A stretch of 61,049 nucleotides of DNA from Lachnospiraceae bacterium. Lineage in GTDB: Bacteria; Bacillota; Clostridia; Lachnospirales; Lachnospiraceae. A program made the position numbers and the translations under genes. Below the pieces are notes generated by a model. It made no database searches, was not told where the DNA came from, and was given only the letters and a program-made list of their open reading frames with translations. Positions 19,332 to 36,764 of this stretch are shown here, in pieces. The stretch covers positions 1 through 61,049 of the forward strand of contig JAILBP010000287.1 in NCBI GenBank assembly GCA_024680835.1. Reading direction: 5' to 3'. Numbering within the stretch: position 1 is the first letter of the stretch; every line of letters begins with the position of its first letter.

Positions 19332-21329
19332 TTATTTCCTGTCCTTGCCCGCGCCCGGCAGATTCCATGAAATGTATTCGCACTCCGGCGCACCCTCACA
19401 GCCGTAGAACCTTCTGCCCTTTTTGGTACGTCTGACCACAAGTTCTTTTCCGCACTCAGGACAGGCAACACCGGTCTTTTCAAGATACGGCTTTGTGTTC
19501 CTGCACTCCGGAAATCCGGGACAGGCGAGGAATTTTCCGTATGCGCCGTACTTTATCACCATGTTGCGCCCACAGAGCTCACAGACCACATCCGTAACTT
19601 CATCGGCGAGTTCCACCTTTTCCAGCTTTTTCTCCGCCTCCACAACAGCTTTGTCCAGATCCGGGTAAAAATTCTCCAATACGGTCTTCCACTCCACGCT
19701 GCCGTCCTCGATCCTGTCCAGAAGTCCCTCCATATTTGCGGTGAAAGTCTCATCCACTATGGTGGGGAAACAATCCGACATGATGTTGTTAACGGCTTCT
19801 CCCACATCCGTGAGGAAAAGATTTTTATTCTCTTTCAAAACATAACGTCTGTTCAACAGAACTCCTATGGTGGGAGCGTAGGTTGAAGGTCTTCCTATGC
19901 CGTGTTCCTCCATGGTCTTTACCAGTGCCGCCTCTGTAAAGTGCGGCTTTGACTTGGTAAAATGCTGCTCACTGTCATAGGCGGAAGCCTTTAGCTCCAT
20001 GCCTTTCTCAAGATTTCCCGGCAGTTCGTTGCTCTTCTCGTTTTTATCATCCGCCTCGGTATATACCGCCATAAAGCCCGCAAAAGACAGCTTGAAACTG
20101 CCTGTTGAAAGCTTGTGTTCGCCGTTTTTGATCTTGACTGTGGCAGTGTCGTATTTTGCCGCTGTCATGCAGGAAGCCAGAAATCTGTTGTATATGAGCT
20201 GATACAGCCTGAAAAGATCCCTCGGCAGCGATTCTTTTACCATGACGGGAGTTCTGGTGATGTCCGTGGGTCTTATGGCCTCGTGGGCATCCTGTACACG
20301 TGCCGCCTTTTTACCTGTGGGCTGGGCTCCGACGTACTCCGCGCCGTAATGCTCTTCAATATAAGTCTTTGTAGCGGCATAAGCATCATCGGAAACACGG
20401 GTGGAATCCGTACGCAGATATGTGATCAACGCTACGGTTCCGCTGCCCTTCACATCAACTCCCTCGTATAACTGCTGGGCGAGACGCATAGTCTTCTGTG
20501 TCGGGAAATTCAGCACCTTTGCCGCTTCCTGCTGCATCGTACTGGTGGTAAACGGAAGAGGTCTGTTTTTTTCGCGTTTGCCGAATTTAATATCATCTAC
20601 GATATATTTGCCTTTTTTAAGTTCCTTCTCAAGCTTCTCCGTATCTTCACCCACAGAGAGCTGTTTCGGTCCCTCATACTTGACATTCAGAGGTTTTTTC
20701 TCACCTTTTACAGTCAGATCCACATTCATGGTCCAGTATTCCTCGGGCACAAATTCCGCTATCTCGGCCTCTCTGTCCGCTATCATCTTGAGGGTTGCGG
20801 ACTGAACACGCCCGGCGGAGAGTTTGCTCTTTACCTTGCTCCACAACAGCGGTGAAATACGGTATCCCACCATTCTGTCCAGGATCCTCCTGGCCTGCTG
20901 GGCATCCACCAGATCCATATCGATCTCCCTGGGATGTTTTATCGACTCCTTTACCGCATTTTTTGTGATCTCATTGAAAGTAATGCGGTAAACCTTTTTA
21001 TCCTTAAATTCCTTAAGCTTTAATGCGAAGCAAAGATGCCAGCTAATGGCCTCTCCCTCACGGTCAGGGTCCGTTGCGAGATAGATAACATCTGCTTTTT
21101 TCACTTCCTTGCGAAGTGCTGCCAGTACATCCCCCTTTCCCCTGATAGTGATATATTTCGGTTCATAATCATGTTCCGGATCAAACCCCAGCTGACTCTT
21201 GGGAAGATCCCTCACATGTCCGCCGGATGCAGTAACCTTATAGTTTTTCCCCAAAAATTTTGATATTGTTTTCACCTTGGCAGGTGATTCCACGATTACC
21301 AGATAATTCGACAAGTTCTTTTCCTCCAT
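19332..21329 (-). CDS. topA: DNA topoisomerase I (type IA)
   Basis: 665 aa. It has a TOPRIM N-terminus (LVIVESPAKVKTI), the active-site region YLRTDSTR and C-terminal Cys4 zinc ribbons (CELCG...CPGFPEC; CPECG...CEGAPEC). Confidence 0.95.
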   Translation of the reverse strand: MEEKNLSNYLVIVESPAKVKTISKFLGKNYKVTASGGHVRDLPKSQLGFDPEHDYEPKYITIRGKGDVLAALRKEVKKADVIYLATDPDREGEAISWHLCFALKLKEFKDKKVYRITFNEITKNAVKESIKHPREIDMDLVDAQQARRILDRMVGYRISPLLWSKVKSKLSAGRVQSATLKMIADREAEIAEFVPEEYWTMNVDLTVKGEKKPLNVKYEGPKQLSVGEDTEKLEKELKKGKYIVDDIKFGKREKNRPLPFTTSTMQQEAAKVLNFPTQKTMRLAQQLYEGVDVKGSGTVALITYLRTDSTRVSDDAYAATKTYIEEHYGAEYVGAQPTGKKAARVQDAHEAIRPTDITRTPVMVKESLPRDLFRLYQLIYNRFLASCMTAAKYDTATVKIKNGEHKLSTGSFKLSFAGFMAVYTEADDKNEKSNELPGNLEKGMELKASAYDSEQHFTKSKPHFTEAALVKTMEEHGIGRPSTYAPTIGVLLNRRYVLKENKNLFLTDVGEAVNNIMSDCFPTIVDETFTANMEGLLDRIEDGSVEWKTVLENFYPDLDKAVVEAEKKLEKVELADEVTDVVCELCGRNMVIKYGAYGKFLACPGFPECRNTKPYLEKTGVACPECGKELVVRRTKKGRRFYGCEGAPECEYISWNLPGAGKDRK

Positions 21330-21356
21330 TTCGGGACTTAAGATCCGGATAGCCTG

Positions 21357-22475
21357 TCACCCCGCATTGATCCTGTATTTACCGGGGTCGGTTTCTGTGA
21401 TATATCCCTTGTCCATCAGTCCCATTATTATCACGGCCAGCTCCGGAACAGACATCCCCGTGGATGAAGCTATCTCTTCCAGACCTTTAGACCGAAGGTC
21501 AAGGTTACTATACACAATAAATTCTTCTTTTTCAAGTTTTAATTCTAAGTTTCGTTTTCTGACCGCTCCGCCGTCGGACCTGAGGCCAAGATCGGCCGCC
21601 AGATCCTCTATGTCCAGTATTATGCCTGCCCCCTGCTTTATAAGGCGGTTCGTTCCCCTTGAATTGATGTCGTTGATCCTGCCGGGCAGGACGTAAACAT
21701 CCCTGTTCTGTTCAAGCGCGGCATCGGCGGTTATAAGGGTCCCGGACTTTTCTCTCGCCTCCACCACGATCAGCACATCGGAAAGCCCGGATATAATACG
21801 GTTTCTCGGCGGAAAAAGTTTTGGCCTCGGCGCAGTGGAGGGCTTGTATTCCGATATTATCCCGCCTCCGCCCTCCAGTATATCCTCGTACAGCTTCCAG
21901 TGCTCCTCCGGATAGACCACATCGACTCCGCAGCCCATCACTGCAAAGGTCTTGCCTCCGTGGGCTAACGCCCCCCTGTGGGAATGCCCGTCAATGCCGC
22001 GGGCCAGACCGCTCACCACGGAAACACCCAGATCCGCCATCTTCTCACCTATCTCGTAAGCCCATTTCGCACCATTGTCGGTGCACGCCCTGGCTCCCAC
22101 CACCGCTACGCTCATCTCTTCATCGGAGGGAAGCTCTCCTATATAATACAGCCAGTATGGCGCATCCTGTATTTCCTTAAGCCTCTCAGGATACTGAACG
22201 GAGTTTCTCGTAATAAAATGTATGGATTTCTCCGCCAGTTTTTCCCATTCCTTCTCAATATCGAAGGTTTTTCTGCTCTCAAATATGAGTGATGCTTCCG
22301 CCTCACCGATCCCCCTCACAGCCATCAGATCCGCCGGGGGAAGATGATAGATCTCGTACGCCCCGGAAGTATATTTCATGAGCTGTTTTATGGTCTTTGG
22401 TCCTATGCCGTCTATGCTCGACAGCCAGAACTCATATTTCATACGTTCGTTTGTTATATCCGTACTCAAGCCCAT
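21357..22475 (-). CDS. dprA: DNA-processing protein DprA (Smf)
   Basis: The start is taken at ATG 22475, which overlaps the comM stop (TGATG) and is preceded by GGGGAGG. It has a Rossmann-like DprA core (GLARGIDGHSHRGAL...IVVEA..KSGTLITA) and a C-terminal wHTH. Confidence 0.9.
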   Translation of the reverse strand: MGLSTDITNERMKYEFWLSSIDGIGPKTIKQLMKYTSGAYEIYHLPPADLMAVRGIGEAEASLIFESRKTFDIEKEWEKLAEKSIHFITRNSVQYPERLKEIQDAPYWLYYIGELPSDEEMSVAVVGARACTDNGAKWAYEIGEKMADLGVSVVSGLARGIDGHSHRGALAHGGKTFAVMGCGVDVVYPEEHWKLYEDILEGGGGIISEYKPSTAPRPKLFPPRNRIISGLSDVLIVVEAREKSGTLITADAALEQNRDVYVLPGRINDINSRGTNRLIKQGAGIILDIEDLAADLGLRSDGGAVRKRNLELKLEKEEFIVYSNLDLRSKGLEEIASSTGMSVPELAVIIMGLMDKGYITETDPGKYRINAG

Positions 22476-24034
22476 CACCTCCCCTGTTCTGTTTCCATGC
22501 GGAAACATAATGCCTCGCAGAGATGCTTTTTGAGTATTTTTTCGCTTTCATCCAGATCCGCAATGGTCCTGGCAACCTTCAGGATCTTGTGATAACCCCT
22601 GGCGGTAAGCTTGAACTTGTCATACATTTTCTCCATCAGTGCATTCTCCTGCTCTCCCAGAGCGCAGAATTTCTGCATCATGGCAGGATTCAACCTGCTG
22701 TTGAAGTTGATATCGCAATCTCTGTATCTCTCCTGCTGGATCCTGTGACATTTTTCCACCCTTTTTCTGATCTCGGCGGAGGACTCATTGGAACCGGAGC
22801 CGTTTAACTCATCAAAGCTTATGGCCGCCGCCTCCACCACCAGATCGATCCTGTCCATCAAAGGCTTTGATATCCTGCTTCTGTATTTGATCACGGACTG
22901 TCTTGTGCAGGTGCACCGGTTTGAGGGATAATAACCGCATTTGCAGGGATTCATACTGCTGCACAGCAATATGTCCGCAGGGTACTCCACCGTGTTCATG
23001 GCTCTGGTGATCTTTATCTTCCTGTCCTCCAAAGGTTCCCTCAGAGTTTCCAGAGCAGATGGTGCAAATTCCGGCAGTTCATCGAGATACAGCACCCCCT
23101 TGTGTGCCAGTGACACCTCCCCCGGCTTTATGACTGCCCCGCCTCCGCTTAAACCCGCGGCAGATACAGTATGGTGGGGCGAGCGTATCGGTCTGCTTGT
23201 CATAAGTCCACGCTTACCGTCCATGAGACCGCAGACACTGTAGATCTTTGACACTTCCAGCCTCTCTTCAGGTAATAGTGGCGGCAAAATAGTAGGAATA
23301 CGCTTTGCCACCATGGTCTTGCCGGCTCCCGGCGGTCCCGTCATGAGGAAATTATGCATACCCGCAACAGCTATCTCACAGGCTCTCCGCAAAACCTGCT
23401 GTCCGCGGATATCCGAAAAATCCAATTTTTCGGAGGATCCTTCCTCCTGTTCCTCAAGGATCGTTTGAGAAGAATCCGGCATACCTTCCGACACCGGGAT
23501 CCCGGACTCATCGTAGTAAACCTTTTTCCCCGACACCGCATCCAGCACATCCAGCAGGTGTTCGATACCTATGATCTCTATCCCTGACACAAGCCTGGCT
23601 TCACAGAGATTATCCATTGGCACGATACACTTATTAATGCCCTCCTCCTTTGCCTTAAGGACATAGGACAGCATACCGTTTATGCCGGAAACGGCACCGT
23701 CAAGGCGCAGTTCACCCACCATAAAAACATTATTCAGATCGTTTTGTGAGATTATACCCAAAGCAGTCATGATAGACACTGCTATGGGCAGGTCAAGACC
23801 TGACCCTGATTTTTTGACTGAAGCCGGCGCCAGATTGATGGTCACTCTCTTGGCCGGCAGTGAGATCCCGTTGTTCTTGAGGGCGGTGCGTATACGCTCC
23901 TTTGACTCTCTGACCTCACCTGACACAAATCCCACCATGTCAACGCATGGAAGCCCGTCGCTGACGTCGGCCTCCGCATCTACCATGATGGCATCTATGC
24001 CGCTTAAAACCGCTGTTTTAACATAACTGTACAT
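22475..24034 (-). CDS. comM: YifB/ComM family Mg-chelatase-like AAA+ ATPase
   Basis: 519 aa. It has an N-terminal Lon-protease-like domain, Walker A GPPGAGKT, Walker B LYLDELPEF and a C-terminal Mg-chelatase subunit ChlI-like domain. Confidence 0.9.
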   Translation of the reverse strand: MYSYVKTAVLSGIDAIMVDAEADVSDGLPCVDMVGFVSGEVRESKERIRTALKNNGISLPAKRVTINLAPASVKKSGSGLDLPIAVSIMTALGIISQNDLNNVFMVGELRLDGAVSGINGMLSYVLKAKEEGINKCIVPMDNLCEARLVSGIEIIGIEHLLDVLDAVSGKKVYYDESGIPVSEGMPDSSQTILEEQEEGSSEKLDFSDIRGQQVLRRACEIAVAGMHNFLMTGPPGAGKTMVAKRIPTILPPLLPEERLEVSKIYSVCGLMDGKRGLMTSRPIRSPHHTVSAAGLSGGGAVIKPGEVSLAHKGVLYLDELPEFAPSALETLREPLEDRKIKITRAMNTVEYPADILLCSSMNPCKCGYYPSNRCTCTRQSVIKYRSRISKPLMDRIDLVVEAAAISFDELNGSGSNESSAEIRKRVEKCHRIQQERYRDCDINFNSRLNPAMMQKFCALGEQENALMEKMYDKFKLTARGYHKILKVARTIADLDESEKILKKHLCEALCFRMETEQGR

Positions 24035-24212
24035 TTTTCGCCTTTCGGTGTCTCAGATGATTGGGGGATCAGACAGACTCCGAAAAACCGTATGTGAACT
24101 TTACACTAAAATATCTTTTTTGTCAAACCTGTTTCTCTGCAGATCCTTTCAGCTCATGAACCCGGGGGCAAACAGACTTAAGCCGCACGACCGACCTGCT
24201 GTCCAAAGATCA

Positions 24213-24890
24213 TTAAAACACAGCCGGAAATGCCATCTTAACAGCCCAGAGCACCATGAGATGCACCGGATAGAATACATAGAAAACATATTTGAGCTTC
24301 ATGCCTCTCTTACCGTTGTAGAAATGGATGAGAGGGAAAGCCGCAATGCACGTCATCTCCGTCTTACCATAAAAGGCAAAGAATATGACTGATGCCATGA
24401 TATATTTGGTGATCTCCTGTTTGAGATCTCCGTTTCTGTACTGGTAAAAAACAAATATGACTGCAACACCGCAGGCGACATAATCCACCCTCAAGGCCAG
24501 TGCCGCGAACATGAAAGCCATCACTATGAAAAACTTCAAAAACGGCTTCTTTGGATCCTCCGGTTTTTTCTCCAAAGTATCCAGACACCATATCATGATA
24601 AGTCCCAATGCCAGGGTAAAGAAAACATTCTGGTGGTCAAGCCACAGAATACTCCCTTTAAAAGCCAGATTAAAGGGAATCTCCGATACGGCAGCGAAAG
24701 CCAGCAGCCTCAATATGTATTTTTTTATGTCTTTAGTTCTTTGGAAACCCTCTACCAACAGGAAGATATATATCGGAAATGCGACGCGGCCTATAAGCCT
24801 TAATACAATCTGATCCGGAAATAAACACGCACCGATGTGATCTATCATCATGGTGATGAGAGCTATCAGCTTTAAGGTGGAATTACTCAT
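24213..24890 (-). CDS. TraX-family integral membrane (acyltransferase-like) protein
   Basis: 225 aa and polytopic. The N-terminus LKLIALITMMIDHIGACLF is characteristic of the TraX family. It overlaps the upstream GH13-like gene by 8 nt. Confidence 0.75.
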   Translation of the reverse strand: MSNSTLKLIALITMMIDHIGACLFPDQIVLRLIGRVAFPIYIFLLVEGFQRTKDIKKYILRLLAFAAVSEIPFNLAFKGSILWLDHQNVFFTLALGLIMIWCLDTLEKKPEDPKKPFLKFFIVMAFMFAALALRVDYVACGVAVIFVFYQYRNGDLKQEITKYIMASVIFFAFYGKTEMTCIAAFPLIHFYNGKRGMKLKYVFYVFYPVHLMVLWAVKMAFPAVF

Positions 24891-26745
24891 TTCCTTCTTC
24901 CTCGAAAAACCATACCGTATAAGGCGGGATCCTGACGCTTCCGCCCTCCGGCTCTATATTGCAGAACTCAGTTCCGAAAACATATTTCAAGGCAGTCTTT
25001 CCCGGAAGTCTCGGTATTGCGATGGTGCTCATGGCTGCCGAAAAATTCATGGCAACATAGAGGCATTTCTCTCCCTCCTCAGCTTTGGTCGGGCAATACA
25101 GGATACCCACGGTCTGTGTCATAGGACTTACAGTGGTGCACCAGGCATCACGGCCATGATAAGAGAGCGCCGGAAGTCCGTTTGCTGCGGTCTGCCCCAT
25201 ATCAACCGGATCGTTGCGATACAAAAGCTTATGATTCTTTCTGAATACAAACAGATCCTTTACGTACTGCACATAATCCTCGTACTTTTCAGCGGTCTTC
25301 CAGTTGAGCCAGCCGATCCTGTTGTCCTGGCAATAGGGATTGTTATTGCCCTCAGCGGAATTACCAAGCTCATCTCCCATGTATATGAGGGGACAACCCT
25401 GAGCTACAGCCAGCACCGATACCGCCATCTTCATCCTCTTCCTGCGCAGCTGTTTAATAAAGTTCTTGCGGGCAACACCCTCCACTCCGCAGTTCGTGCT
25501 GAAGTTATTATCGCAGCCGTCGGTATTCTGCTCGCCGTTGGCCTCATTGTGTTTGTATGCATATGCAAAAACATCTGCCAGAGTAAAACCGTTGTTATTG
25601 GCAAAGTAATTGACAAAACCCAGGCTGCGGTCCTGCTTTTTAAGCTGTGCCAGGGTCTGCTGCATGTCATTGTCGTTGTAATTGATCTGGCGTCTTAAAG
25701 TATACTGAAAATCGTCCCTGTACTGATACAAAAGCTTGCAATCATCCGATATTCCGGCATCATCACTGTATATATTGTCATAGAAGATCTTTGATGTCTT
25801 CAGCATCGGGATCACTGATAAGTGCTTTACCTCGATGTCTCCACCCAGGAGATGGAATCCATCCATATGATAATCCTTGACCCAGTGGCATAAAACATCG
25901 GAAATATAGGCAAGGCTCAGTTTCTCCGGGAAATTGATCTCCATAAAACACTGTATTCCGGCCGCATGCAGACTCTTTACCATATCGCGCACGGCACTCA
26001 CCGGATTACGTTTGCCGGCAAATGACCTCTTCGGAGCAAAGTATTCGCCCTTACCGTATCCCCAGTAATTGATGCGTACATTCCGTTCCGGTCTCTTGTC
26101 CGAGTCAGCCAAAAGGTCGTATCCTTTTCTGGCTTCGGGGCTCCATCCCGCAAAGCCCGTCACATTCTCATCCTCCGGCATCAGTTCCTCGAATTCATAT
26201 ATGGGCATGAACTCCACGGCATTGATCCCCAGAGACTTAAGGTACGGTATCATCTCCGTGACGCCCTCAAATGTTCCTCTCTTTGACGGCTCGATCTTAG
26301 CCTCTTTGGTAAAGCCTCTGACATTAAGCTTGTAGATGACAAATTCATTGTCCTGTATATCAGGCTTTTCGTCTCCCTGCCAGTCGTAATACTCCGTTTC
26401 GAAGACTCCTCTCAAGCTCTTCCGCTCGTCTGTAAGTCTTGAAACGTCGCCCCATTTCTCTCTGCCGGCTATGGATGTGGTATAGGAAAAAAGCCGCTCC
26501 TCACCGTCAGCGATCATGGTATACTCGTATTTACTGAAATCAATGCCCTTGATCATAAATGAGCAGACTTCACCTATGCAGTATTTATCCGGCATCTCGA
26601 TGATCTCGTACTCGTCCGTTCCCTTTTTGTATAATTTCAGGGAGTATTTTGAGTTTTTCTTATATTGAAATGTGAAAAACAGTGTATCTCCCACTACCCG
26701 GATACCTATTTTTTCATATATTCCCGATCTGATCTCTATCGCCAT
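24883..26745 (-). CDS. GH13 GlgX/isoamylase-like protein with apparently substituted catalytic residues (predicted non-catalytic)
   Basis: 620 aa. It closely resembles glycogen-debranching enzymes (NYWGYG, LCHWVKDYHMDGF, GFTLADV...YKHNEANGE.N.DG..NN.S.NCG.EG). At the conserved regions it reads MEINFPE (expected DVVxNH), DGFHLLG (expected DGFRFDL) and ANNNGFTL (expected AHDGFTL). Confidence 0.75.
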   Translation of the reverse strand: MAIEIRSGIYEKIGIRVVGDTLFFTFQYKKNSKYSLKLYKKGTDEYEIIEMPDKYCIGEVCSFMIKGIDFSKYEYTMIADGEERLFSYTTSIAGREKWGDVSRLTDERKSLRGVFETEYYDWQGDEKPDIQDNEFVIYKLNVRGFTKEAKIEPSKRGTFEGVTEMIPYLKSLGINAVEFMPIYEFEELMPEDENVTGFAGWSPEARKGYDLLADSDKRPERNVRINYWGYGKGEYFAPKRSFAGKRNPVSAVRDMVKSLHAAGIQCFMEINFPEKLSLAYISDVLCHWVKDYHMDGFHLLGGDIEVKHLSVIPMLKTSKIFYDNIYSDDAGISDDCKLLYQYRDDFQYTLRRQINYNDNDMQQTLAQLKKQDRSLGFVNYFANNNGFTLADVFAYAYKHNEANGEQNTDGCDNNFSTNCGVEGVARKNFIKQLRRKRMKMAVSVLAVAQGCPLIYMGDELGNSAEGNNNPYCQDNRIGWLNWKTAEKYEDYVQYVKDLFVFRKNHKLLYRNDPVDMGQTAANGLPALSYHGRDAWCTTVSPMTQTVGILYCPTKAEEGEKCLYVAMNFSAAMSTIAIPRLPGKTALKYVFGTEFCNIEPEGGSVRIPPYTVWFFEEEGNE

Positions 26746-26904
26746 ATTCTCTCCCGGACGCCCCGTCCATGTCTGAAAATGCGCCCATACAGTCTTTTTC
26801 TGTGTTTAACCAAAAAATCAAAGTCATTATATCACATTGACGGATCAGATAAAAGCGGAAAATAAAAAATTAACCTTCCCGTAGTCCAAAGAATACTCCT
26901 TTGG

Positions 26905-29643
26905 TTACAGTTTTGTAAAAAACAGCAATCCGAAGGTTCCCGGTCCACAGTTGGCAGCTATGGCAGGCGAAGCCTTCTGAACATAAACATTATCGAATTC
27001 TGCGTACTGTGCGGCTTTCTGCTGCACCCACTCAAGTTCCTTATTCGTCATGCCCACATAGGTTATGAACAGAATCTCTTTGTCTATCTCACCGGGGACA
27101 TCAAAAACCGATGCTATATACCGCTCCCATGCATGCTCCCTGGAACCGAAGAAAACTCTCGAAACATCCATCTTCCCTTTTTTCAGGCTTATGATGGGAT
27201 GTATCATAAAGGCTTTTCCCAGTCTTCCGGTAACCTCCGAGATCTGCTTTTGTCTAACGAGGAAATCCAGTGTATCCACTATAAAGCTTGTGTGGATATG
27301 ACTCTTCATCTTTTCGAGTCGTGGCAGAATATCCTCGATCTTCATGCCTCCCGCCGCAAGTTTTGCCGCTTCTATAGCCATAAGTCCCTGACCGCCGGAC
27401 AGATGTCCCGAATCCACAACAGTCACATTTCCGAAGTTCTGTGCCGCCTCCATAGCCATGTGACAACCGCTGTGTTCCACCCTGCGGGAGATGGAAATAT
27501 GCAGAATATTGTTGGCATCATCAAGCTGATTGCTGAAAAAAGTCTCGTGATCTTCTTCGGAAGGCGCCTCCGTCTGTACTGTGACATTGGGATTTCTCAT
27601 GTATGCCAGAAGACCGTCAGTCTCGATCTCCAATTCGTCCTTGAAAAGACCGTCATCAGTCCTCACCATATGAGGTATTACCGTAATATTGTATTTTTTT
27701 CGTAAGGAAGCAGGAACATCAGCCACACTCTCGGTGGTTACTTTTACCATCACCTTCTTTTGATGATCCCTGATCCATGCTTTACTCTCTTCCGCAAGCT
27801 CTCTTCCGCCACCGAATACAGTGATCAGATTCCTCGGAAGCATACGGTATACCATATCCTCAAGTTCTTCTCCGGTCACCGGCTTTGTCAGATATCCGTC
27901 AAAACCTTCCTTTTCGTACATGGCAGCCACATCCGCACCGGTGTTAGCCGTCAGAGCCACGATCCTCGAATCACGGCAGAACCCGCCTGTCTGTTCCTTA
28001 ATGGCATGCATGCATTCTATGCCGTCCATACCGGGCATCTTATGATCCATGAGTATAAGATCATAGTGCTGCTCCACTGTCTTTTTCAGGGCTTCTGCAC
28101 CGGATATCACGGTACAGACCTGTACCTTGGTACACTTTAACAGCTTCGTGACAACCATTAGATTGGCAGAAGTATCATCCACCACCAGAATCTTTGCCTC
28201 AGGTGCTTCAAAAGATTCCACATGGGTGTAGGCTTTACCGCTTCGGTGCCTGTCTTCCATATCAAGCTCACCCAAAGGCACATCCGATGCCACAACCTGC
28301 GGTATTTCTATCACAAATGTGGAACCCTTGGTGTAGACACTGTTGACGGTGATCTTTCCGCCCATAAGATCCACAAACTGCTTGACTATGGACAGCCCCA
28401 GCCCGGTACCCTCTATATATTTGTTTTTCTCGGTGTCCACCCTCTTAAAAGCAGTGAAAAGATGAGGAATACTCTCTTTTCTGATACCCATTCCGGTGTC
28501 GGATACGGTATATGATACACGAGCCGTACCGTCCTCCCCTTTCTCGCACTGGATGGTCAGTCTGACATAACCCTCGGATGTGTACTTTATGGCATTATTC
28601 ACTACATTGATGAGGATCTGCTTGATACGCATCTCATCGCCTATGAGCTCCGACGGAAGCTCCGGTGAGACATCCACATGAAATGCCAGATTTTTCTCTT
28701 TTGCACGGATCCACAGCATACCCACAATATCGGACAGCATGTCTCCCGTGCGGTATTTGGTCACATTCAGCTCCATCTGCCCCGACTCAAACTTTGACAT
28801 ATCCAGTATGTCATTGATAAGATGCAGCAGCATATGGCTTGCAGCCTGGATGTTCTGAGCGTCCTCATTGATCTCCTCCGAGGCGTCCTCCCTTAGGATC
28901 ATCTCGTTTAAGCCTATTATGGTGTTGATGGGAGTCCGGATCTCATGGCTCATGTTGGAGAAGAATCTGTTCTGGGAATCGTTAAGCCTGCTGATCTCTT
29001 CCTTCTGTTCCTCCTGGATCACAAACCTCTCCATCACGTTGTATTTGTAATAATATACTACGATCCCGAGGAAAAGCTGTATTCCCGCAAAAACAAAAAA
29101 ATCAGTCAGATTGGCATTTTTGAAAGCATTTTTTGCTCCGTCCTCCAGGAACATAGACACAACCAGCAGGTCCGATATGATGGAAAAGATTATGTAAACT
29201 CTTACATCGATGAACTGGCAGAAAGGTATGCAGATCAGTACCACCATGTATATCGTCGCATCCATATGACCCAATGACAGATAATCCATATAGCTCATGC
29301 GCATGCCCCACCACAAAAGCAGCAGGACGATAAAAGCGTTTATCGTAGGTAAAATACGGTATCGTTTGTCAAACTGCCTGCCTACATATAAGATAACCGC
29401 CTCATCGATCATCATACCCACAAGCATTACGATATAATATATCCTGAATGTGGACATCAGGCCCTCTCCCTTGTAGGTCTCCGGCAATATATATGATGCC
29501 ACCATAAACAGGACTATAATGAAAGCTATCAGAGGACAGGCGACCAGTGAAATCCTGTAGGCATCAAAAATACAGCCCTTCCTGATCTTCTCATAATTGG
29601 GATTTCTCTTTTGAAAAAAGATAAAATCGATCAGCTTTCTCAC
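26905..29643 (-). CDS. Hybrid sensor histidine kinase: ~6 TM - HisKA - HATPase_c - REC - C-terminal DegV-like domain
   Basis: 912 aa. It has the H-box FFSNMSHEIRTPINTIIG, G-boxes DTGMGI / GTGLGLSIV, and a receiver KILVVDD...DLILMDHKMPGMDG...LTA...KP. The last 283 aa are DegV-like (see the next feature). Its start overlaps the upstream HK gene by 4 nt. Confidence 0.9.
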   Translation of the reverse strand: MRKLIDFIFFQKRNPNYEKIRKGCIFDAYRISLVACPLIAFIIVLFMVASYILPETYKGEGLMSTFRIYYIVMLVGMMIDEAVILYVGRQFDKRYRILPTINAFIVLLLLWWGMRMSYMDYLSLGHMDATIYMVVLICIPFCQFIDVRVYIIFSIISDLLVVSMFLEDGAKNAFKNANLTDFFVFAGIQLFLGIVVYYYKYNVMERFVIQEEQKEEISRLNDSQNRFFSNMSHEIRTPINTIIGLNEMILREDASEEINEDAQNIQAASHMLLHLINDILDMSKFESGQMELNVTKYRTGDMLSDIVGMLWIRAKEKNLAFHVDVSPELPSELIGDEMRIKQILINVVNNAIKYTSEGYVRLTIQCEKGEDGTARVSYTVSDTGMGIRKESIPHLFTAFKRVDTEKNKYIEGTGLGLSIVKQFVDLMGGKITVNSVYTKGSTFVIEIPQVVASDVPLGELDMEDRHRSGKAYTHVESFEAPEAKILVVDDTSANLMVVTKLLKCTKVQVCTVISGAEALKKTVEQHYDLILMDHKMPGMDGIECMHAIKEQTGGFCRDSRIVALTANTGADVAAMYEKEGFDGYLTKPVTGEELEDMVYRMLPRNLITVFGGGRELAEESKAWIRDHQKKVMVKVTTESVADVPASLRKKYNITVIPHMVRTDDGLFKDELEIETDGLLAYMRNPNVTVQTEAPSEEDHETFFSNQLDDANNILHISISRRVEHSGCHMAMEAAQNFGNVTVVDSGHLSGGQGLMAIEAAKLAAGGMKIEDILPRLEKMKSHIHTSFIVDTLDFLVRQKQISEVTGRLGKAFMIHPIISLKKGKMDVSRVFFGSREHAWERYIASVFDVPGEIDKEILFITYVGMTNKELEWVQQKAAQYAEFDNVYVQKASPAIAANCGPGTFGLLFFTKL
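26908..27756 (-). other. DegV-like (FakB-type fatty-acid-binding) domain fused to the C-terminus of the hybrid kinase
   Basis: Residues 630-912 read VKVTTESVADVP..L.KKYNITVIP..V......FKD...I....L...M......QTEAPS...H.ISIS...SG....A.EAA....NVTVVDSGHLSGGQGLMAIEAAKLAAGGMKIEDILPRLEKMKSHIHTSFIVDTLDFLVRQKQIS...G....I.PIISL..GKM....K..G...A........I....VG......E.........V.....SPAIAANCGPGTFGL. This matches the canonical DegV pattern (I.TDS.ADLP, TSQPS, LSSGLSGTYQSA, V.DS...S.GQG.LV..AA.L...G.S.EEI, F.VDTLEYL.KGGRIS, H.GPG..G) along its full length. Confidence 0.8.
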
Positions 29644-32252
29644 TGCGCACCTCCCTCGGGCTCGAATTCCATAACCGCATCAAATTCCATCACACCGGAA
29701 TCGGAAACATTACCGTTTTCCTCATCATCCGCTTCATCTGATACCGTATCAAATTCCATTATCTCACCGGATGCCTCTTCAGGATCACTGTCATCTTCGG
29801 TATTCAGGCACTTCAGTATACCTTCGGCAATCTGCTTAAAACGATCCATGGTATCCCCGTGGTTTGCATTTATAGTCGCAACATTGCCTGCCTCTGCTGC
29901 TTTTTCAAGCTTCAGGGCAGCCTCTGAAAGCTCTGTTGCACCTATCATCTTCGAAGAACTCTTAATGGAGTGCACTAAGATCTCATAATTCTTGTAATCC
30001 TTTTCCTGAAGGTACTTTTCAGCGTTTTGTATCTTTCCGGGAGCGTCACCTGCATACTGCAACAGAAGCTGCTCGTAAAACTCCCTGTCATTCTGGGTAT
30101 ATCTGAGCCCCGTCCTTTCGTCTATACCGTAGTCTGCCAGTACAGCTGAACCCGTTTGCAACTTTTCAACGCTCTGTTCAGAAGTGTCCGCATCCTCCTC
30201 TTCCTCTGTAAGACTTGACTTCGGCAGAACCTTTCTCAGAATCCTCTCAAGCTCGAATACCTCGATGGGCTTCGCCAGAAATGCATCGAACCCTTCTCTG
30301 ATAAACATCTCCTTCGCAGTGCTCACCGCATTTGCCGTAAGAGCCACTATGGGCACAATCTTTCCACTGCGTGAAAGTATCGAACGGATGCGTCTCATCG
30401 CCTCTACGCCATCCATCCCCGGCATCATGTGATCCATAAATATGATATCCACATCATGCTCCTCAACAAAGCTTATGGCTTCAGCTCCGGAACCCGCACT
30501 GAACACCTCCATGCCGTAACCGGCAAATATCTCTTTGGCAACAATGTGATTTAACGGCTCATCATCAACCACAAGAGCCCTCACACCGCAGGTCTTTAAT
30601 CTTCCCTCCTGATGACTGCTGTTCTCCACGTCTGAGTTTAAGAAAGCGATCACAGGAAAACAGTAGAAGGGTTTACGCATAATGCGGACATTTGAATTTT
30701 GGGGCTTTCTGAAAGAATTACCACATACGACTGCTACCAGTGTCTCCATGCTGATGGAGTCGAAAAACTCAGGAGATTCCTCATACTCGTCCTGCCCCAC
30801 AAAGACATGGGTAAAATGCGTGATCTTACAGAGCTGTTCAAATGTCTCTATATTATCCGCGCGCTGCATTTCCACCTTGAGACCTATGACGAGATCTTTT
30901 ACCATGGCATTGTAGAAATCCCTGACATGGGGATTTTCAAACTTCTCAAAATGAAGATATGCTCCTATGCGAAGCCGTTCGCGGTCTATAAGACTCATAC
31001 ATGCGGAGCTGTCCACAACCTTTTGAGGAATGCTGACCCTGACTGAAGTACCTGCTCCGGGAGTGCTTTCTATGGCGAAGAATCCCTTGAGACTGCTCGT
31101 AAAACCGTTCACAATGGAAAGACCCAGACCAAGTCCGCTGGTGGATCTTGTACGTCCCGAATCCGCCTGATAGAACCTGTCGGTCACCTTTTCCAGCTCT
31201 TCCTTGTCCATACCGATACCGGTATCTTTTACAAACAGCTGAAGATTAATGCCGTACTCTCTCTGCTCCGCCGTCACACGGACATAGATACCCCCTTCCC
31301 GGGTATATTTCAAACCGTTTTCAACAAGGTGCTTTATTATCTTTTTAAGCTTCACCACATCTGTGATCATAACAGACGGAACCGCCGGATCCACGTCTAT
31401 GACAAGCTCCACGTCATCAGTCTTTTTGGGTCTTACCTCGGACACTATATCATTGAGGAGAGAAGAGATCATATAGTTTTCTTCGTTAACCGCCATGGAA
31501 TCCATCTCGATCTCAGAGTAGTCCTGAATGTCGCTGATCTGCTCTCCCACACGTCTTCCTGCCTCTGATACCGCCTTTAAGTTTTCACGGATATCATCGT
31601 CTTTTTCTCTCTCAAGACATACCCCTGACAGACCGATAACGGCATTTATGGGCGTACGGATCTCGTGGGAGATATTTGCCAGAAAGTCATTTAGCTTTTC
31701 GGTAGCCTCGGAGAGCTCCCTCATCTCATCCTCGGATTTATCCATTATGTAATTCCACTTCCTGATAATGATACGGGAAACATAAGCCAGGATCGTTATA
31801 ACAACATAATGTAAGAGGGTTCTGGTGATCACAAGGCTGTCAAAAACCTCTCCGGCTGAGTACATCTGAAAAACATCATATGTCATGGTGATATAATATG
31901 TTACCTGGCACTGGGTCACCAGACCCTCGATACCGGTCGAGATCAGTATCATCATGAAAAGCGACAAAACCAGCCCCAGATCATAGGTACTGGTAATATG
32001 AATGCCATAAAAAAAGGCCATCACCATTATGAAGGTTGAATATATCCAGATCCTGGCATTTGCAGTCAAAAGCTGTCTGACATGTATTATCCATGACACG
32101 ATCACCGCGCCGGCTATGGGGATTAGAGCCCAGCTCTCCCATGACAGCAATAAAGACTCTCCTGCGAGTATTGCGGCAAAAATGGTAAAACACGATAACA
32201 CGGTCAGATGCGATGACTCAAAATAGTCTGTTTTCTTTGACTTTAGTCTCAA
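29640..32252 (-). CDS. Hybrid sensor histidine kinase: ~5-6 TM - HisKA - HATPase_c - ~140-aa unassigned domain - REC - HPt - acidic tail
   Basis: 870 aa. It has the H-box FLANISHEIRTPINAVIG, G-boxes DTGIGM / GLGLGLSIV, a receiver RALVVDDEP...DIIFMDHMMPGMDG...LTA...KP and an HPt motif (ILVHSIKSSSKMIGA). The C-terminus has three MEFD/MEFE repeats. Confidence 0.9.
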   Translation of the reverse strand: MRLKSKKTDYFESSHLTVLSCFTIFAAILAGESLLLSWESWALIPIAGAVIVSWIIHVRQLLTANARIWIYSTFIMVMAFFYGIHITSTYDLGLVLSLFMMILISTGIEGLVTQCQVTYYITMTYDVFQMYSAGEVFDSLVITRTLLHYVVITILAYVSRIIIRKWNYIMDKSEDEMRELSEATEKLNDFLANISHEIRTPINAVIGLSGVCLEREKDDDIRENLKAVSEAGRRVGEQISDIQDYSEIEMDSMAVNEENYMISSLLNDIVSEVRPKKTDDVELVIDVDPAVPSVMITDVVKLKKIIKHLVENGLKYTREGGIYVRVTAEQREYGINLQLFVKDTGIGMDKEELEKVTDRFYQADSGRTRSTSGLGLGLSIVNGFTSSLKGFFAIESTPGAGTSVRVSIPQKVVDSSACMSLIDRERLRIGAYLHFEKFENPHVRDFYNAMVKDLVIGLKVEMQRADNIETFEQLCKITHFTHVFVGQDEYEESPEFFDSISMETLVAVVCGNSFRKPQNSNVRIMRKPFYCFPVIAFLNSDVENSSHQEGRLKTCGVRALVVDDEPLNHIVAKEIFAGYGMEVFSAGSGAEAISFVEEHDVDIIFMDHMMPGMDGVEAMRRIRSILSRSGKIVPIVALTANAVSTAKEMFIREGFDAFLAKPIEVFELERILRKVLPKSSLTEEEEDADTSEQSVEKLQTGSAVLADYGIDERTGLRYTQNDREFYEQLLLQYAGDAPGKIQNAEKYLQEKDYKNYEILVHSIKSSSKMIGATELSEAALKLEKAAEAGNVATINANHGDTMDRFKQIAEGILKCLNTEDDSDPEEASGEIMEFDTVSDEADDEENGNVSDSGVMEFDAVMEFEPEGGAQ

Positions 32253-32253
32253 C

Positions 32254-33264
32254 TCACACCTCCCTCAGTTCGAAATCCTTATCCTCTTCGATTATGGCCA
32301 GCATAACATCAGCGATATCAGGATCGAACTGCGTCCCCTTACCGTTTATAAGCTCCTGTTTTACCGCGCTCTGGGGCAACGGCTGTCTGTAACTTCTGTG
32401 ACTTGTCATAGCGTCATAGGAATCCGCAACCGCGATGATACGGGCTTCTCTGGGAATATCCGTTCCTTCAAGTCCGTCCGGGTAACCCTTCCCGTCAAAA
32501 CGCTCATGATGCCATCTTGCACCCACGGCAAGCGACGGCATTTCCTTGATATTGCCCAAAATTCTGGCGCCCATCACAGGATGATTTTTAATGGTCTGAA
32601 ACTCTTCCTCGGAAAGCTTCGCAGGCTTATTGATCACCGCATCCGGAACACCGATCTTACCCACGTCATGCAAAAGCCCCATCATATAGATTTCATCCAG
32701 CTTCTTGTCGGAGTATCCCATCCGTTTCGCGATTTCCTTTGAATACCCGGCCACACGTCCGGAATGACCGTTGGTATATGTATCCTTGGCATCGATGGCA
32801 TCCGCCAGGGAGCTTACGACATGCATGAACAAACGCTCATTCTCATCGGTTTTTTTGCGAACCTCCTGCTCAAGATTTCTCTGAAGATGACTGAGATCTA
32901 TGATGTGCTGAACCCGTAACGTCAAAACCTTCGGTACAAAGGGCTTTTTTATAAAATCCACAGCGCCCTCCTCAAGTCCTCTCGTCTCCGTCTCATCTTT
33001 CTCATCGGCAGTCAGAAAGATGACCGGGATCTCACCCGCCGGGTCTATCGTACTTCTCATCATTCTCAAAACCTCGAAACCATCCATTTCCGGCATTTTT
33101 ATGTCCAACAGGATAAGATCCGGTTTTCCTTTTTCATTCATATAATCAAGGAGCAGCTTTCCGCTCTGAAGCGCCGTCACTTTATAACCGGCGTGACTTA
33201 AGATATGACCCGCGATTTTCAGATTTGCCGAATCGTCGTCAACAACTATAACCCAATCTGCCAT
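32254..33264 (-). CDS. Response regulator with HD-GYP output domain (predicted c-di-GMP phosphodiesterase)
   Basis: The start is taken at ATG 33264 (MADWVIVVDDD), preceded by GGAGGGGAG. It has a receiver (DLILLDIKMPEMDG) and HD-GYP motifs (GLLHDVGKIGVPD, HHERFDGKGYPDGL). The stop lies 1 nt before the next gene's start. Confidence 0.9.
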   Translation of the reverse strand: MADWVIVVDDDSANLKIAGHILSHAGYKVTALQSGKLLLDYMNEKGKPDLILLDIKMPEMDGFEVLRMMRSTIDPAGEIPVIFLTADEKDETETRGLEEGAVDFIKKPFVPKVLTLRVQHIIDLSHLQRNLEQEVRKKTDENERLFMHVVSSLADAIDAKDTYTNGHSGRVAGYSKEIAKRMGYSDKKLDEIYMMGLLHDVGKIGVPDAVINKPAKLSEEEFQTIKNHPVMGARILGNIKEMPSLAVGARWHHERFDGKGYPDGLEGTDIPREARIIAVADSYDAMTSHRSYRQPLPQSAVKQELINGKGTQFDPDIADVMLAIIEEDKDFELREV

Positions 33265-33437
33265 AACTCCCCTCCAAATTATATGCCCCTGCATCATAAC
33301 GTAAAAAAATCCTCTTTATTTTATCATACCCCATAAATAAAAAAAAGCCCGTATTATAATTGACAGCAACTATTTTTTAGGTTAGTATGGATGAGCGTGT
33401 GGTCGTATTGACCGGGACAATATCAGGGAGGTTTAAG

Positions 33438-33788
33438 ATGGCAGAGAATAAAGATTATAAGGTATTGGTTGATGGATTTAATAATGAAGAAGAAGAGGAC
33501 GACATGGAAGATCTCAGAGTCACTCTGGATATCGGTGACGGCAAAGAGATCGAGTGCGGAATCCTGACGATCTTTGATCTCGGAGACGGCAGCGACCAGG
33601 ATTACATCGTTCTGGTACCTGTCGACGAGGACGGCGATTACCTTGAGGAGACAGACATATACATCTACAAATACTTTGAAGATGAAAACGGAGAACCCTC
33701 CATCGAAATGCTGGATGATGACGAGGAGTTCGACAAGGTCAATGCCCGCTTCGAGCAGCTCATGGACGAAGCGGATGACGAGGATTGA
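33438..33788 (+). CDS. DUF1292-family small acidic protein
   Basis: The start is taken at ATG 33438, with GGGAGG 7 nt upstream. The protein is 116 aa and very acidic. The motif ECGILTIFDLG..DYIVLVPVDEDG.......IYIYKY.EDENGEP.IE...DDEEFD.V matches my memory of DUF1292. It is the only convincing plus-strand gene in the window. Confidence 0.7.
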   Translation: MAENKDYKVLVDGFNNEEEEDDMEDLRVTLDIGDGKEIECGILTIFDLGDGSDQDYIVLVPVDEDGDYLEETDIYIYKYFEDENGEPSIEMLDDDEEFDKVNARFEQLMDEADDED

Positions 33789-33797
33789 TAAAAGTCC

Positions 33798-35600
33798 TCA
33801 CTTATTCAAAAATCTTTCCAGAAACGGGGACGGATGGCTGTCAGAATACATGAACAGATCATCCTTTGCCCTTGTCATGGCAACATAGAAAAGCCGTCTT
33901 TCCTCTTCGATCTCGGCGGGGAGAACGGCTTTTTTGTATGGAATCACGCCCTCCACGCACTCCGGCAGGAACACCGCGGAATACTCCAGCCCCTTGGCAC
34001 CGTGATAGGTAGATAAGAACACACCGTCATCAGTGCTCCTGTTATGCGTATCTCTTCTCATGGCATTCTTTAATTCTTCGATTCCTCTCAAAAAAGACGA
34101 AATGTCCGTATATTCCTTTGCCACTTCGGATAACCGGTCAAGATTCTTTATCCTGTCGGCGGGATCCGTTCCCGATTTCCTGCACTCATCGGAAATATAA
34201 CCTTCGTATCCTATTCCTTTTCTGATAAAGTTGATGGCGGCAAAGGGCGATAGGCGTTTCAGCATGTCAAGATCATCAAATAACTGACATACGGAATCCT
34301 TAAGCCTTTCCCTTGTACATTTCTTCAACAGCATATCCCTTGTCACCACAGCTTCTGTCAGCATATCCCTCGAGATATAGCGCACAGGTCTGTTCATGAT
34401 GCAGAGGAAATCCCCACGCTTCTTATCTCCCTGCGAGAGCACAAGGTATGTCAAAACATCCTTTATCTCCCTGTTATCAAATATATCGAATATCCTCTCC
34501 CTGGAACAGAAAGGGATCTGCGCACGCATGAGCATGCCTGCCAACAGCGCGCTCTGTCTGTTGGTCCTGTACAAAACACAGATATTCCTGTATTCCGTGC
34601 CAGCCTCCTTCAGTTCCCTGATCCTTTTTATGATATCGATATTCTGCCTGTAGATCCCGTCATAAACGGCGATCTCGACTTTGCCTCCGGCGCCGCGCAC
34701 TGCTTTTGCATTCTTTTCAAAACGCTCCCTGTTGTCACTTATCACAATGGACGCAGCCTTTACGATCTCCTCCCTGCTCCTGAAGTTTTCTCCCAGCCTG
34801 TAGATCTTTACTCCGGCAATCTCCTTTGTAAATCTGTTGAGTATTCCCGGCTTAGCGCCTCTGAAACCGTAAATGCTCTGATCGTCATCCCCCACCATGA
34901 AAAGATTTCCGCTCTCCCCTGCCAACATCATGATGATGCGGTATTGGAGCTCATTCATGTCCTGTGACTCATCTACCAGAATATACCTGAATTTATCCTG
35001 CCATGCTTTGAGCGCTTTGGGGTTCGATCTGAAAAGTCTGAAGGTCTCCAGCAGCATATCGTCAAAATCGTACAGCCTGTTGTCCTTCAGCCTTTTGTCA
35101 TATTCAGTGAAAATCTTTACAAACCTGTCTCTGTCCATACATTTGGACGTGTAGGAAAAAATATCGGTATCGCTGTTTTTTACAACACTGATCTCATTCA
35201 GTATATCTCCGAAAAACTCATTTTCCGTACCGGAAGTTATGACCTCGTTTCCCACGGCATCCCTTATGAAATTGTACTTATCCTCCACAGTCAGTATGTT
35301 ATCCCTGCCCAGATCAAAGGCGTGCTGTAATATGGTAAAAAACACACTGTGAAAGGTCCCGAAAGAGACCAGACTGTCCCTGCCGGCAGACATAGCTTTA
35401 TAACGGAGCCTCATCTCCGTCGCGGCCGCTTTTGTAAAGGTTACCACCAGTATGTTGTCTTCTCTTATACCCTGTGAATTGACGAGTGAATGGATCCTCG
35501 CCGTGATGACTGCAGTCTTACCGCTGCCGGGTCCCGCCAGTACAAGTGCGGGACCGCCTGCATGCGATATGGCCTGTCTCTGTGAATCAGAAAAAATCAT
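33798..35600 (-). CDS. SF1 UvrD/PcrA/Rep-family DNA helicase (short, 600 aa)
   Basis: All helicase motifs are readable: Q-motif SDSQRQAI, I AGPGSGKT, Ia VVTFTKAAATEM, II ILVDESQDMN, III VGDDDQSIYGFRGA, IV ENFRS, V TYHGAKGLEY, VI LFYVAMTRAKDDL. A GGAGAA RBS lies inside the end of the upstream gene. Confidence 0.9.
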   Translation of the reverse strand: MIFSDSQRQAISHAGGPALVLAGPGSGKTAVITARIHSLVNSQGIREDNILVVTFTKAAATEMRLRYKAMSAGRDSLVSFGTFHSVFFTILQHAFDLGRDNILTVEDKYNFIRDAVGNEVITSGTENEFFGDILNEISVVKNSDTDIFSYTSKCMDRDRFVKIFTEYDKRLKDNRLYDFDDMLLETFRLFRSNPKALKAWQDKFRYILVDESQDMNELQYRIIMMLAGESGNLFMVGDDDQSIYGFRGAKPGILNRFTKEIAGVKIYRLGENFRSREEIVKAASIVISDNRERFEKNAKAVRGAGGKVEIAVYDGIYRQNIDIIKRIRELKEAGTEYRNICVLYRTNRQSALLAGMLMRAQIPFCSRERIFDIFDNREIKDVLTYLVLSQGDKKRGDFLCIMNRPVRYISRDMLTEAVVTRDMLLKKCTRERLKDSVCQLFDDLDMLKRLSPFAAINFIRKGIGYEGYISDECRKSGTDPADRIKNLDRLSEVAKEYTDISSFLRGIEELKNAMRRDTHNRSTDDGVFLSTYHGAKGLEYSAVFLPECVEGVIPYKKAVLPAEIEEERRLFYVAMTRAKDDLFMYSDSHPSPFLERFLNK

Positions 35601-35606
35601 TAAGAA

Positions 35607-36761: not shown

Positions 36762-36764
36762 ACT

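Follow-up and report, generated by a model that had tools for sequence, protein, structure and literature searches.

What does a domain of the DegV family do at the end of a membrane-bound hybrid histidine kinase (HK), when DegV/FakB proteins are, to our knowledge, known solely as free fatty-acid carriers for the fatty acid kinase (Fak), and when the fatty-acid-responsive two-component kinases known to us (RpfC and, indirectly, SaeS) work without a dedicated lipid-binding fold? The question is raised by a gene, hereafter HK2 (26905..29643, minus strand), within 61,049 nt of DNA of Lachnospiraceae bacterium (assembly GCA_024680835.1, contig JAILBP010000287.1, positions 1 to 61,049, forward strand), the whole of which is called the window below. 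An earlier interpretation of this DNA, made without database searches (the sequence-only reading), had recognised a DegV domain behind the kinase and the receiver (REC) of the HK2 product, and had offered both an input and an output role for it. The analyses presented here lead us to favour, with a probability of about 0.5, the view that this domain is a cytoplasmic, membrane-proximal lipid-binding regulatory module which gates a two-kinase phosphorelay, and not a carrier serving a fatty acid kinase.

A DegV domain at the C-terminus of an intact hybrid kinase

The HK2 protein is composed of an N-terminal transmembrane (TM) block, a kinase core built of a dimerization and histidine phosphotransfer (DHp) domain and a catalytic and ATP-binding (CA) domain, a receiver, and the DegV domain. 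The features are as follows (the basis of each assignment is given in brackets):

26905..29643, minus strand: HK2 gene, GTG start, 912 aa, order TM block-HisKA-HATPase_c-REC-DegV (Pfam; full-length orthologues)
29029..29643, minus strand: N-terminal membrane block, aa 1-205, about six TM helices with short loops (hydropathy, AlphaFold2 (AF2) helices)
28780..28974, minus strand: HisKA (DHp), aa 224-288, with H233 at 28945..28947 (Pfam)
28297..28641, minus strand: HATPase_c, aa 335-449 (Pfam; invariant N, G1, and G2 boxes)
27850..28191, minus strand: receiver (Response_reg), aa 485-598, with D533 at 28045..28047 (Pfam)
27748..27849, minus strand: REC-DegV linker, aa 599-632 (AF2 confidence, conservation)
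26914..27747, minus strand: DegV domain, aa 633-910 (Pfam, NCBIfam, AF2, and structure comparison)

All four Pfam domains were detected in HK2, those of the kinase and the receiver with E-values from 2.3e-18 to 4.2e-28. The DegV profile (PF02645) matched at an E-value of 2.6e-45, with 155.3 bits against a cut-off of 27 and with positions 2-279 out of 280 of the profile covered, and the NCBIfam profile TIGR00762 (DegV) gave 174.5 bits (cut-off 99.7). Together with the fold match described below, this bears out the DegV domain proposed from the sequence; the segment then delimited, 26908-27756, corresponds to residues 630-912, and all six motif strings quoted for it occur in the translation.

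The AF2 model of the DegV domain alone (predicted local distance difference test (pLDDT) 90.6, predicted template modelling score (pTM) 0.90) was compared with the fatty-acid-loaded structures 1pzx, 2dt8, 7w7h_E, 4x9x, and 5uto, which gave TM-scores of 0.79-0.87 over about 285-290 columns, whereas the scores against FakA_C (6w6b) and DhaK reached only about 0.5. When the full-length HK2 model was submitted to Foldseek, the top matches were 2dt8, 1pzx, 4x9x, 7w7h_E, and 5uto (target TM-scores of 0.82-0.87); the nearest solved structure is 2dt8, with 26-27% identity in structural alignments. FakA_C is a DegV-like domain devoid of the three inserts that form the roof of the lipid tunnel (PMC9136124), and the high scores against FakB, as opposed to about 0.5 against FakA_C, therefore indicate a complete, tunnel-type FakB fold in the model. 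By its profile matches and predicted fold, the domain belongs to the DegV family (PF02645/TIGR00762, EDD fold).

Residue columns were counted over 120 homologues of HK2 (clusters at 90% identity). The phospho-acceptor H233 is invariant among them; invariant, too, are N346, N350, D382, G384, G386, and G412-G416 of HATPase_c, as well as D489, D490, D533, T565, and K587 of the receiver. Judged from these residues, HK2 is a catalytically intact hybrid kinase, devoid of a histidine phosphotransfer (Hpt) domain of its own. The N-terminal helices, about six in number and joined by short loops, were recovered by both hydropathy and AF2, as had been anticipated in the sequence-only reading. In the model, the last TM helix (179-251) runs directly into the DHp helix, and neither a HAMP nor another linker domain is present between them; a search of the TM block for Pfam sensor domains gave no match at E-values up to 0.1.

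The full-length AF2 model, based on a 115-sequence alignment, has a mean pLDDT of 81, with values of 85-92 in the DegV block and below 50 for residues 611-627. The latter suggests that the REC-DegV linker is likely a flexible tether; E619, S620, and W623 within this linker are nearly invariant. Conservation was expressed as mean pairwise identity of 115 orthologues, computed per domain, and not as dN/dS, because the orthologues are 50-65% identical and their synonymous sites are saturated. The values were 75% for DHp, 74% for CA, 67% for REC, 58% for DegV, 41-44% for the linkers (44% for the one between REC and DegV), and 25% for the TM block, and about 100 DegV positions reach a conservation of at least 90%. 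These figures indicate that the DegV domain is under purifying selection and much better conserved than the membrane block, which would otherwise pass for the sensor. An assembly or frameshift artefact was ruled out, as the same continuous four-domain open reading frame (ORF) is found in more than 100 independent assemblies.

The predicted ligand site and the residues required by FakA

A profile of seven fused DegV domains was aligned to Staphylococcus aureus FakB1 (SaFakB1), the numbering of which was verified with the use of its mutated residues A121, A158, and F263. The following equivalences were obtained (HK2 residue first, both codons with coordinates on the minus strand):

T691 = T62
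R797 = K170
Q800 (27244..27246) = R173
G833 = R205
R835 = K207
N898 (26950..26952) = H270

The Thr of the FakB TSQPS motif is kept in HK2 (T691), in a column occupied by T in 69, P in 39, and A in seven of the 120 homologues. Two positions that are conserved in the HK2 family differ from FakB, as Gln stands in place of the catalytic Arg (R173 of SaFakB1, R170 of SsFakB2) and Asn in place of the carboxylate-binding His (H270/H264): column 800 holds Q in 108 homologues (H in seven, L in four, Y in one), and column 898 holds N in 114 (S in five, H in one). The FakB Arg is essential for FakA phosphorylation and makes no contact with the ligand (PMC9136124, PMC10848957), and it stabilises the acyl-phosphate product (PMC9136124). 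R205 of FakB1, described as a wedge-like Arg for docking to FakA_C and the membrane (PMC9136124), aligns to G833, which is invariant, and R835, situated two residues beyond this position, is an Arg in 112 of the 120 homologues.

In FakB1, T62, S95, and H270 form a hydrogen-bond network to the carboxylate of the fatty acid. The loop E723-H724-S725-G726 exceeds the canonical LSGT loop by one residue, and the canonical Ser (S95 of FakB1) was placed differently by the phmmer, MAFFT, and profile alignments, with E723, H724, or S725 as possible counterparts; S725-G726 is conserved and caps the helix 727-734 in the model. The column counts and the FakB1 alignment are in agreement with the earlier remark that several ligand-contacting motifs are diverged. 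Membership of the domain among the true FakB proteins, in the form of a FakB tethered to a kinase, was rejected in view of the exchange of R173 to Q and of H270 to N and of the score on the FakB1 equivalog NF038249 (fatty_FakB1), which was 71.1 bits and, thus, well below the cut-off of 350. By these sequence criteria, the DegV domain does not qualify as a functional FakB, and it is probably no Fak substrate carrier. Neither a Dak2/FakA gene nor a second DegV gene turned up in those parts of the 61-kb window that were scanned.

It should be added that NCGPGT (with Asn for His), together with T662, G665, F667, H715, and S892, is common to the nearest stand-alone relatives of about 280 aa, and this signature therefore points to a distinct DegV subfamily and not to a decayed copy. 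The Arg is kept in about half of the wider NCGPGT group, and Gln is found instead in the HK2 orthologue group, the only one inside which H658 is invariant. Motifs on the pocket side are conserved (SxAD, S749, S725-G726, and NCGPGT), and the GPGT and DS...S...G motifs are retained.

HK2 belongs to a three-gene signalling module

The sequence-only reading had missed a partner kinase with an Hpt domain and a regulator related to cyclic di-GMP (c-di-GMP), both encoded directly upstream of HK2:

32254..33297, minus strand: REC-HD-GYP response regulator, 347 aa (HD_5, E-value 5.7e-36)
29640..32252, minus strand: HK1, 870 aa, order TM block-HisKA-HATPase_c-insert-REC-Hpt, upstream of HK2 (Pfam)
30588..31010, minus strand: insert of HK1, aa 415-555, about 140 aa, between HATPase_c and REC (conservation)
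29880..30071, minus strand: Hpt of HK1, aa 728-791, with H761 in an HSIKSSS motif (Pfam, E-value 2.9e-08)

HK1 and HK2 are paralogues (27% identity over the TM block and kinase core, 39% over REC). The GTG start of HK2 overlaps the HK1 stop by 4 nt (GTGA), and the stop of the regulator gene lies 1 nt ahead of the HK1 start, so that the three abutting or overlapping, co-directional genes at 33297..26905 (minus strand) constitute one signalling module. The window shows this 4-nt overlap, and so do all six distinct gene-called homologous loci (one of which is present on two contigs, L001/L002). Enough upstream DNA for the partner was available in 69 loci, and in 66 of them the DegV kinase begins where a TM-HK-insert-REC-Hpt gene ends; the remaining three retain the partner kinase in a split or mis-called form. 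The gene preceding the kinase pair could be inspected in 59 loci:

REC-GGDEF-REC-HD-GYP: 24 of 59 loci
REC-HD-GYP: 14 of 59 loci
REC with another output (e.g., REC-SpoIIE, REC-GGDEF): 9 of 59 loci
other signalling domains: 4 of 59 loci (HK-REC-Hpt in two, HD-GYP alone in one, REC-REC in one)
no detected signalling domain: 8 of 59 loci

Regulators of the REC-HD-GYP or REC-GGDEF-REC-HD-GYP type are, thus, found in 38 of the 59 loci. The REC-HD-GYP protein of the window is probably the output of the relay, of the c-di-GMP phosphodiesterase type, and, by their domain content, HK1 and the regulator gene together hold the Hpt and the terminal response regulator for a His-Asp-His-Asp phosphorelay. 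In one locus (L090) the roles are swapped, with an upstream kinase without Hpt and a downstream HK-REC-DegV-Hpt, joined by the same 4-nt overlap and preceded by a REC-GGDEF gene. Since Hpt may be carried by either kinase of the pair, both kinases, together with DegV and Hpt, behave in evolution like a single unit. For the HK1 insert, no Pfam match was obtained at E-values up to 0.1. Partner kinases of at least 66 related loci contain a recognisable counterpart, and the insert might represent a pseudo-receiver of the kind present in ShkA, and a second regulatory site.

In some genomes, two HK-Hpt/HK-DegV pairs are present, either in tandem or on separate contigs (L054, L037, L024/L078, and L022/L053). 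The copies of L054 are located at 5162..7846 and 11278..13995, and the second of them is accompanied by Hpt in the form of a separate small ORF. The closest GTDB genome contains a stand-alone DegV gene (L008, 313..1230) on the upstream side of the kinase pair, at a distance of about 1 kb, and it has no equivalent in the window. This gene was ruled out as a source of the fused domain, as it is only 23% identical and represents another DegV type.

DegV in other kinase architectures

A phmmer search with the DegV domain yielded 7285 matches (E-values up to 1e-3; 1.84 billion representatives at 50% identity), and the architectures of the best 150 of them were as follows:

DegV alone: 55 of 150 (some are fragments)
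HK-REC-DegV: 47 of 150 (the HK2 architecture)
HK-REC-DegV-Hpt: 9 of 150
REC-DegV: 8 of 150 (N-terminal heads of 0-19 aa)
DegV-HK-REC-Hpt: 7 of 150
HK-DegV without a recognisable receiver: 7 of 150 (three with a stretch resembling the HK1 insert)
REC-DegV-Hpt: 6 of 150
DegV-Hpt: 6 of 150
other single cases: 5 of 150 (including HK-DegV-Hpt, P0190)

In the N-terminal type, DegV occupies aa 1-285 and precedes five or six TM helices (approximately aa 320-480), behind which lie kinase, REC, and Hpt; in terms of predicted domains, this DegV-TM-HK type is a permutation of the parts found in HK2. Proteins of about 450-515 aa that consist of DegV and Hpt (P0180, P0159, P0196, and P0173; the Hpt match of P0180, 29.6 bits, is above the cut-off) are, as deduced from their domains, free phosphotransfer proteins with a predicted lipid-binding domain. 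The varied positions show that DegV is tied to kinases and Hpt and not to the place behind the receiver, and the domain is, on the evidence of these sequences, a mobile module of hybrid kinases.

Among shorter proteins, two of the REC-DegV type were checked with Pfam: P0134 begins in the middle of the receiver (a fragment), and P0147 (454 aa) has a whole receiver with a 26-aa head. No clearly complete stand-alone REC-DegV regulator was seen among the 150 best relatives. Of three REC-DegV-Hpt proteins checked in the same way, P0150 and P0175 begin mid-receiver, and P0164 has a whole receiver with a 49-aa head. P0190 (816 aa) has the order HATPase_c-DegV-Hpt, with no receiver between the kinase and Hpt, and P0188, P0246, P0253, and P0221 consist of HATPase_c, about 170 residues without a Pfam match, and DegV, with no HisKA match. 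These receiver-less DegV kinases may be degenerate kinases, pseudo-kinases, or elements of a receiver-free relay.

Distribution and literature status of the fusion

The four-domain architecture of HK2 was found in at least 120 clusters (90% identity), the members of which are 49-88% identical to HK2 and mostly 890-918 aa long; more than 115 full-length orthologues were collected, and the same ORF is also present at the genome loci L008-L087. The named clusters originate from Lachnospiraceae, Eubacterium, Clostridiales, and the isolate Ruminococcaceae bacterium R-25, and carry the database label 'DegV family EDD domain-containing protein'. In a scan with two peptide patterns, NCGPGTFG and F[KRM]D[GE][LKN]EI[ED]T, performed on one genome per species, relatives of the DegV domain were detected in 447 species genomes. 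The best 80 of these 447 are nearly all metagenome-assembled genomes from the rumen or the ruminant intestine (RUG, RUI, RGIG, and Tb.RUG series), and represent Lachnospiraceae, Butyrivibrio, Eubacterium, Ruminococcaceae/Oscillospiraceae, and Saccharofermentans, as well as the isolate YRB3002.

The rarity implied by the sequence-only reading does not agree with these numbers (at least 120 clusters, 447 species genomes, and 47 of the 150 closest representatives with HK-REC-DegV). Its claim of novelty held in one respect: full-text literature searches on DegV returned no paper that describes or tests an HK-REC-DegV fusion, common as the architecture is in databases. The fusion is, therefore, common, conserved, and uncharacterised as far as the literature searches go. 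About half of the closest relatives of this DegV subfamily are signalling fusions, for which the blanket annotation 'DegV family protein' or FakB is misleading.

For bacteria of the ruminant gut, free unsaturated fatty acids represent both a major stress and the substrate of biohydrogenation. The concentration of the family in ruminant-gut Clostridia, which face this fatty-acid stress, therefore makes it a candidate lipid-sensing system.

Comparison with known systems

Free FakB/DegV proteins (S. aureus FakB1 and FakB2, S. suis FakB2, T. thermophilus 2dt8, and Geobacillus 1pzx) resemble the HK2 domain in their profile match and two-lobed fold. Apart from the residue exchanges and the longer Ser loop described above, the difference is that FakB is a free protein of about 280 aa, whereas DegV of HK2 is covalently attached to a membrane hybrid kinase.

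In the RpfC/RpfG system, RpfC (five TM helices, no HAMP, DHp-CA-REC-HPt) and RpfG (REC-HD-GYP) sense the fatty acid known as diffusible signal factor (DSF), which RpfC detects by a 22-aa periplasmic N-terminus and the TM helices (PMC5391125). This Xanthomonas system, the output of which is c-di-GMP hydrolysis, has the same layout as HK1 with its regulator; the resemblance is an architectural one, drawn from shared generic domains. RpfC has no DegV, whereas here a second, paralogous kinase with DegV is coupled to the RpfC-like HK1, and the host is a Gram-positive gut anaerobe. Neither an RpfF-type synthase nor a gene of the enoyl-CoA hydratase type was encountered in those parts of the window that were scanned.

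ShkA (PDB 6qrj) was the best kinase match of the full-length HK2 model and a top sequence match of HK1. Like HK2, the ShkA type is a hybrid kinase served by a separate Hpt carrier, and its C-terminal half contains an additional domain without catalytic function; this additional domain is a pseudo-receiver in ShkA, which is opened by c-di-GMP bound to it, whereas in HK2 it is a DegV lipid-binding fold. A link between the free fatty acid pool, DegV-family proteins, and two-component kinase activity exists likewise in SaeRS of S. aureus, which is controlled by that pool (PMC5539427). There, however, the link is indirect and runs through separate proteins, with Fak lowering free fatty acids, while DegV of HK2 lies within the kinase polypeptide.

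Possible role of the DegV domain

In the proposed mechanism, DegV would be held beside the membrane on its flexible tether of about 20-30 residues and would take a fatty acid or a related amphiphilic lipid from the inner leaflet. Free FakB proteins sit at the membrane surface during lipid exchange (PMC8892158). The loaded or empty state of DegV would then bias either the kinase/phosphatase balance of HK2 or the transfer from REC to Hpt: phosphate on D533 of the HK2 receiver would be passed to Hpt of HK1 and from there to the response regulator, with a resulting change in the c-di-GMP level.

The choice between input and output, which the sequence-only reading had posed, can be narrowed, because DegV occurs N-terminally and next to Hpt in permuted variants, the output is encoded by a separate gene, and the Arg needed by FakA is lost. 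These features favour lipid-sensing input or regulation and make an output function less favoured. The wider generalisation, that DegV is a portable lipid-input module of Clostridial phosphorelays by which rumen Lachnospiraceae/Oscillospiraceae turn the lipid state of the inner leaflet into c-di-GMP, is held more tentatively, with slightly less than even confidence.

Several points weigh against a lipid-binding regulatory domain. Two of the four head-group residues are swapped for uncharged ones, which makes a carboxylate ligand less certain here than it is for FakB; the position of the carboxylate-binding Ser is ambiguous in the alignments; and the lipid tunnel predicted for the domain has similarity of fold as its one ground. 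Moreover, the location of DegV right behind the receiver is the classical one of an output domain, the route from the HK2 receiver to Hpt of HK1 is deduced only from the gene pairing and from domain complementarity, and no lipid-metabolism gene was consistently linked to the locus among the loci compared.

These points can be arranged into other explanations. The fact that half of the canonical head-group residues are replaced, together with the repeated adjacency of DegV and Hpt (HK-REC-DegV-Hpt, DegV-Hpt, and HK-DegV-Hpt) and the presence of Hpt on either member of the kinase pair, would suit a ligand-independent scaffold, which binds no lipid and docks HK2 to HK1 or positions Hpt near the receiver; there is a precedent in FakA_C, where a DegV-like fold serves protein binding and nothing else (PMC9136124). 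We regard a scaffold as unlikely, since the model keeps the three tunnel-roof inserts of FakB that FakA_C has lost (TM-scores of 0.85 and 0.5, respectively), the motifs on the pocket side are conserved, and NCGPGT is also present in the stand-alone relatives of about 280 aa and is, hence, not an adaptation to fusion. If a ligand is bound, it might also be an uncharged or otherwise different small molecule instead of a fatty acid; monoacylglycerols, fatty alcohols, and fatty amides come into consideration, as does feedback by a nucleotide second messenger. Both ionisable head-group residues are replaced by conserved amides, the conserved polar residues T662, H715, S892, and H658 are absent from the canonical reference structures, no solved structure is nearer than 2dt8, and the EDD superfamily also binds polar ligands, e.g., dihydroxyacetone in DhaK (PMC10848957). 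Nevertheless, all ligand-bound DegV structures among the matches hold a fatty acid, nothing positive points to another ligand, and such a sensor appears distinctly improbable.

We give little credence to a phosphorylation-controlled output, i.e., a tethered, regulated FakB in which the phosphorylated receiver switches DegV between holding and releasing a fatty acid, or presents it to FakA. Its position directly C-terminal to an intact receiver, the full FakB-type fold, and the conserved R835 close to the R205 position of FakB1 (PMC9136124) would fit such a role, but the exchange of the FakA-required Arg in 108 and of the carboxylate His in 114 of the 120 homologues does not, and the same DegV type stands ahead of the TM block, far from the receivers in sequence, as well as on Hpt alone. 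In addition, the operon already has a separate output regulator, and one carrier per membrane kinase would be a metabolic route of very low capacity. Acyl-phosphate and aspartyl-phosphate are compounds of the same kind, and small acyl phosphates act as phosphodonors to receivers, so direct chemistry might also be imagined, in which a DegV-held fatty acid accepts phosphate from the receiver or Hpt, or its acyl-phosphate donates to them. The frequent location of DegV beside Hpt, and P0190 with no receiver in between, could be read in this way. Such chemistry deserves next to no credence, however, as the Arg that stabilises acyl-phosphate (PMC9136124) is missing in the HK2 orthologue group, P0190 is a single metagenomic sequence, possibly a deletion or an assembly error, and nothing further speaks in favour of it.

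Under the preferred reading, that of a lipid-binding regulatory module, a FakB-type domain without the residues of Fak catalysis, placed in a relay that drives c-di-GMP, would define a new type of input domain. If the wider generalisation to Clostridial phosphorelays is true, DegV would be the first receptor of such a kind for lipids in two-component signalling, and it would offer a handle on the response of biohydrogenating rumen bacteria to toxic dietary unsaturated fatty acids.

Other features of the window

The genes downstream of HK2 vary from locus to locus (esterase, phosphoenolpyruvate carboxykinase, ABC transporter, and glycoside hydrolase family 13 (GH13)). In the window, the gene following HK2 (24883..26745, minus strand) encodes a protein of 620 aa with a weak, partial match to alpha-amylase (GH13). 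The 159-nt spacer between them (26746..26904) contains an extended -10-like sequence, TGATATAAT, ahead of this gene, which is probably a transcription unit separate from the kinase operon.

All annotated genes of the window are located on the minus strand, and GC skew is below zero in each 2-kb bin (1..61049), which indicates that the whole window lies inside one replichore with co-oriented genes. They include the dcw cluster, argS, uvrD, comM-dprA-topA-codY, and a flagellar operon (fliH, fliI, fliK, flgD, flgE, motAB, fliM, and fliN/Y), and the window looks like an ordinary chromosome region of a motile member of the ruminant-gut Clostridia group. Four successive genes without an assigned function adjoin the gene of an uvrD-like helicase (35607..42361, minus strand). 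Two of their products (384 aa and 262 aa) have no Pfam match, and the other two carry DUF5716_C (412 aa, E-value 1.9e-94) and DUF5717 (1145 aa, E-value 4.8e-177).

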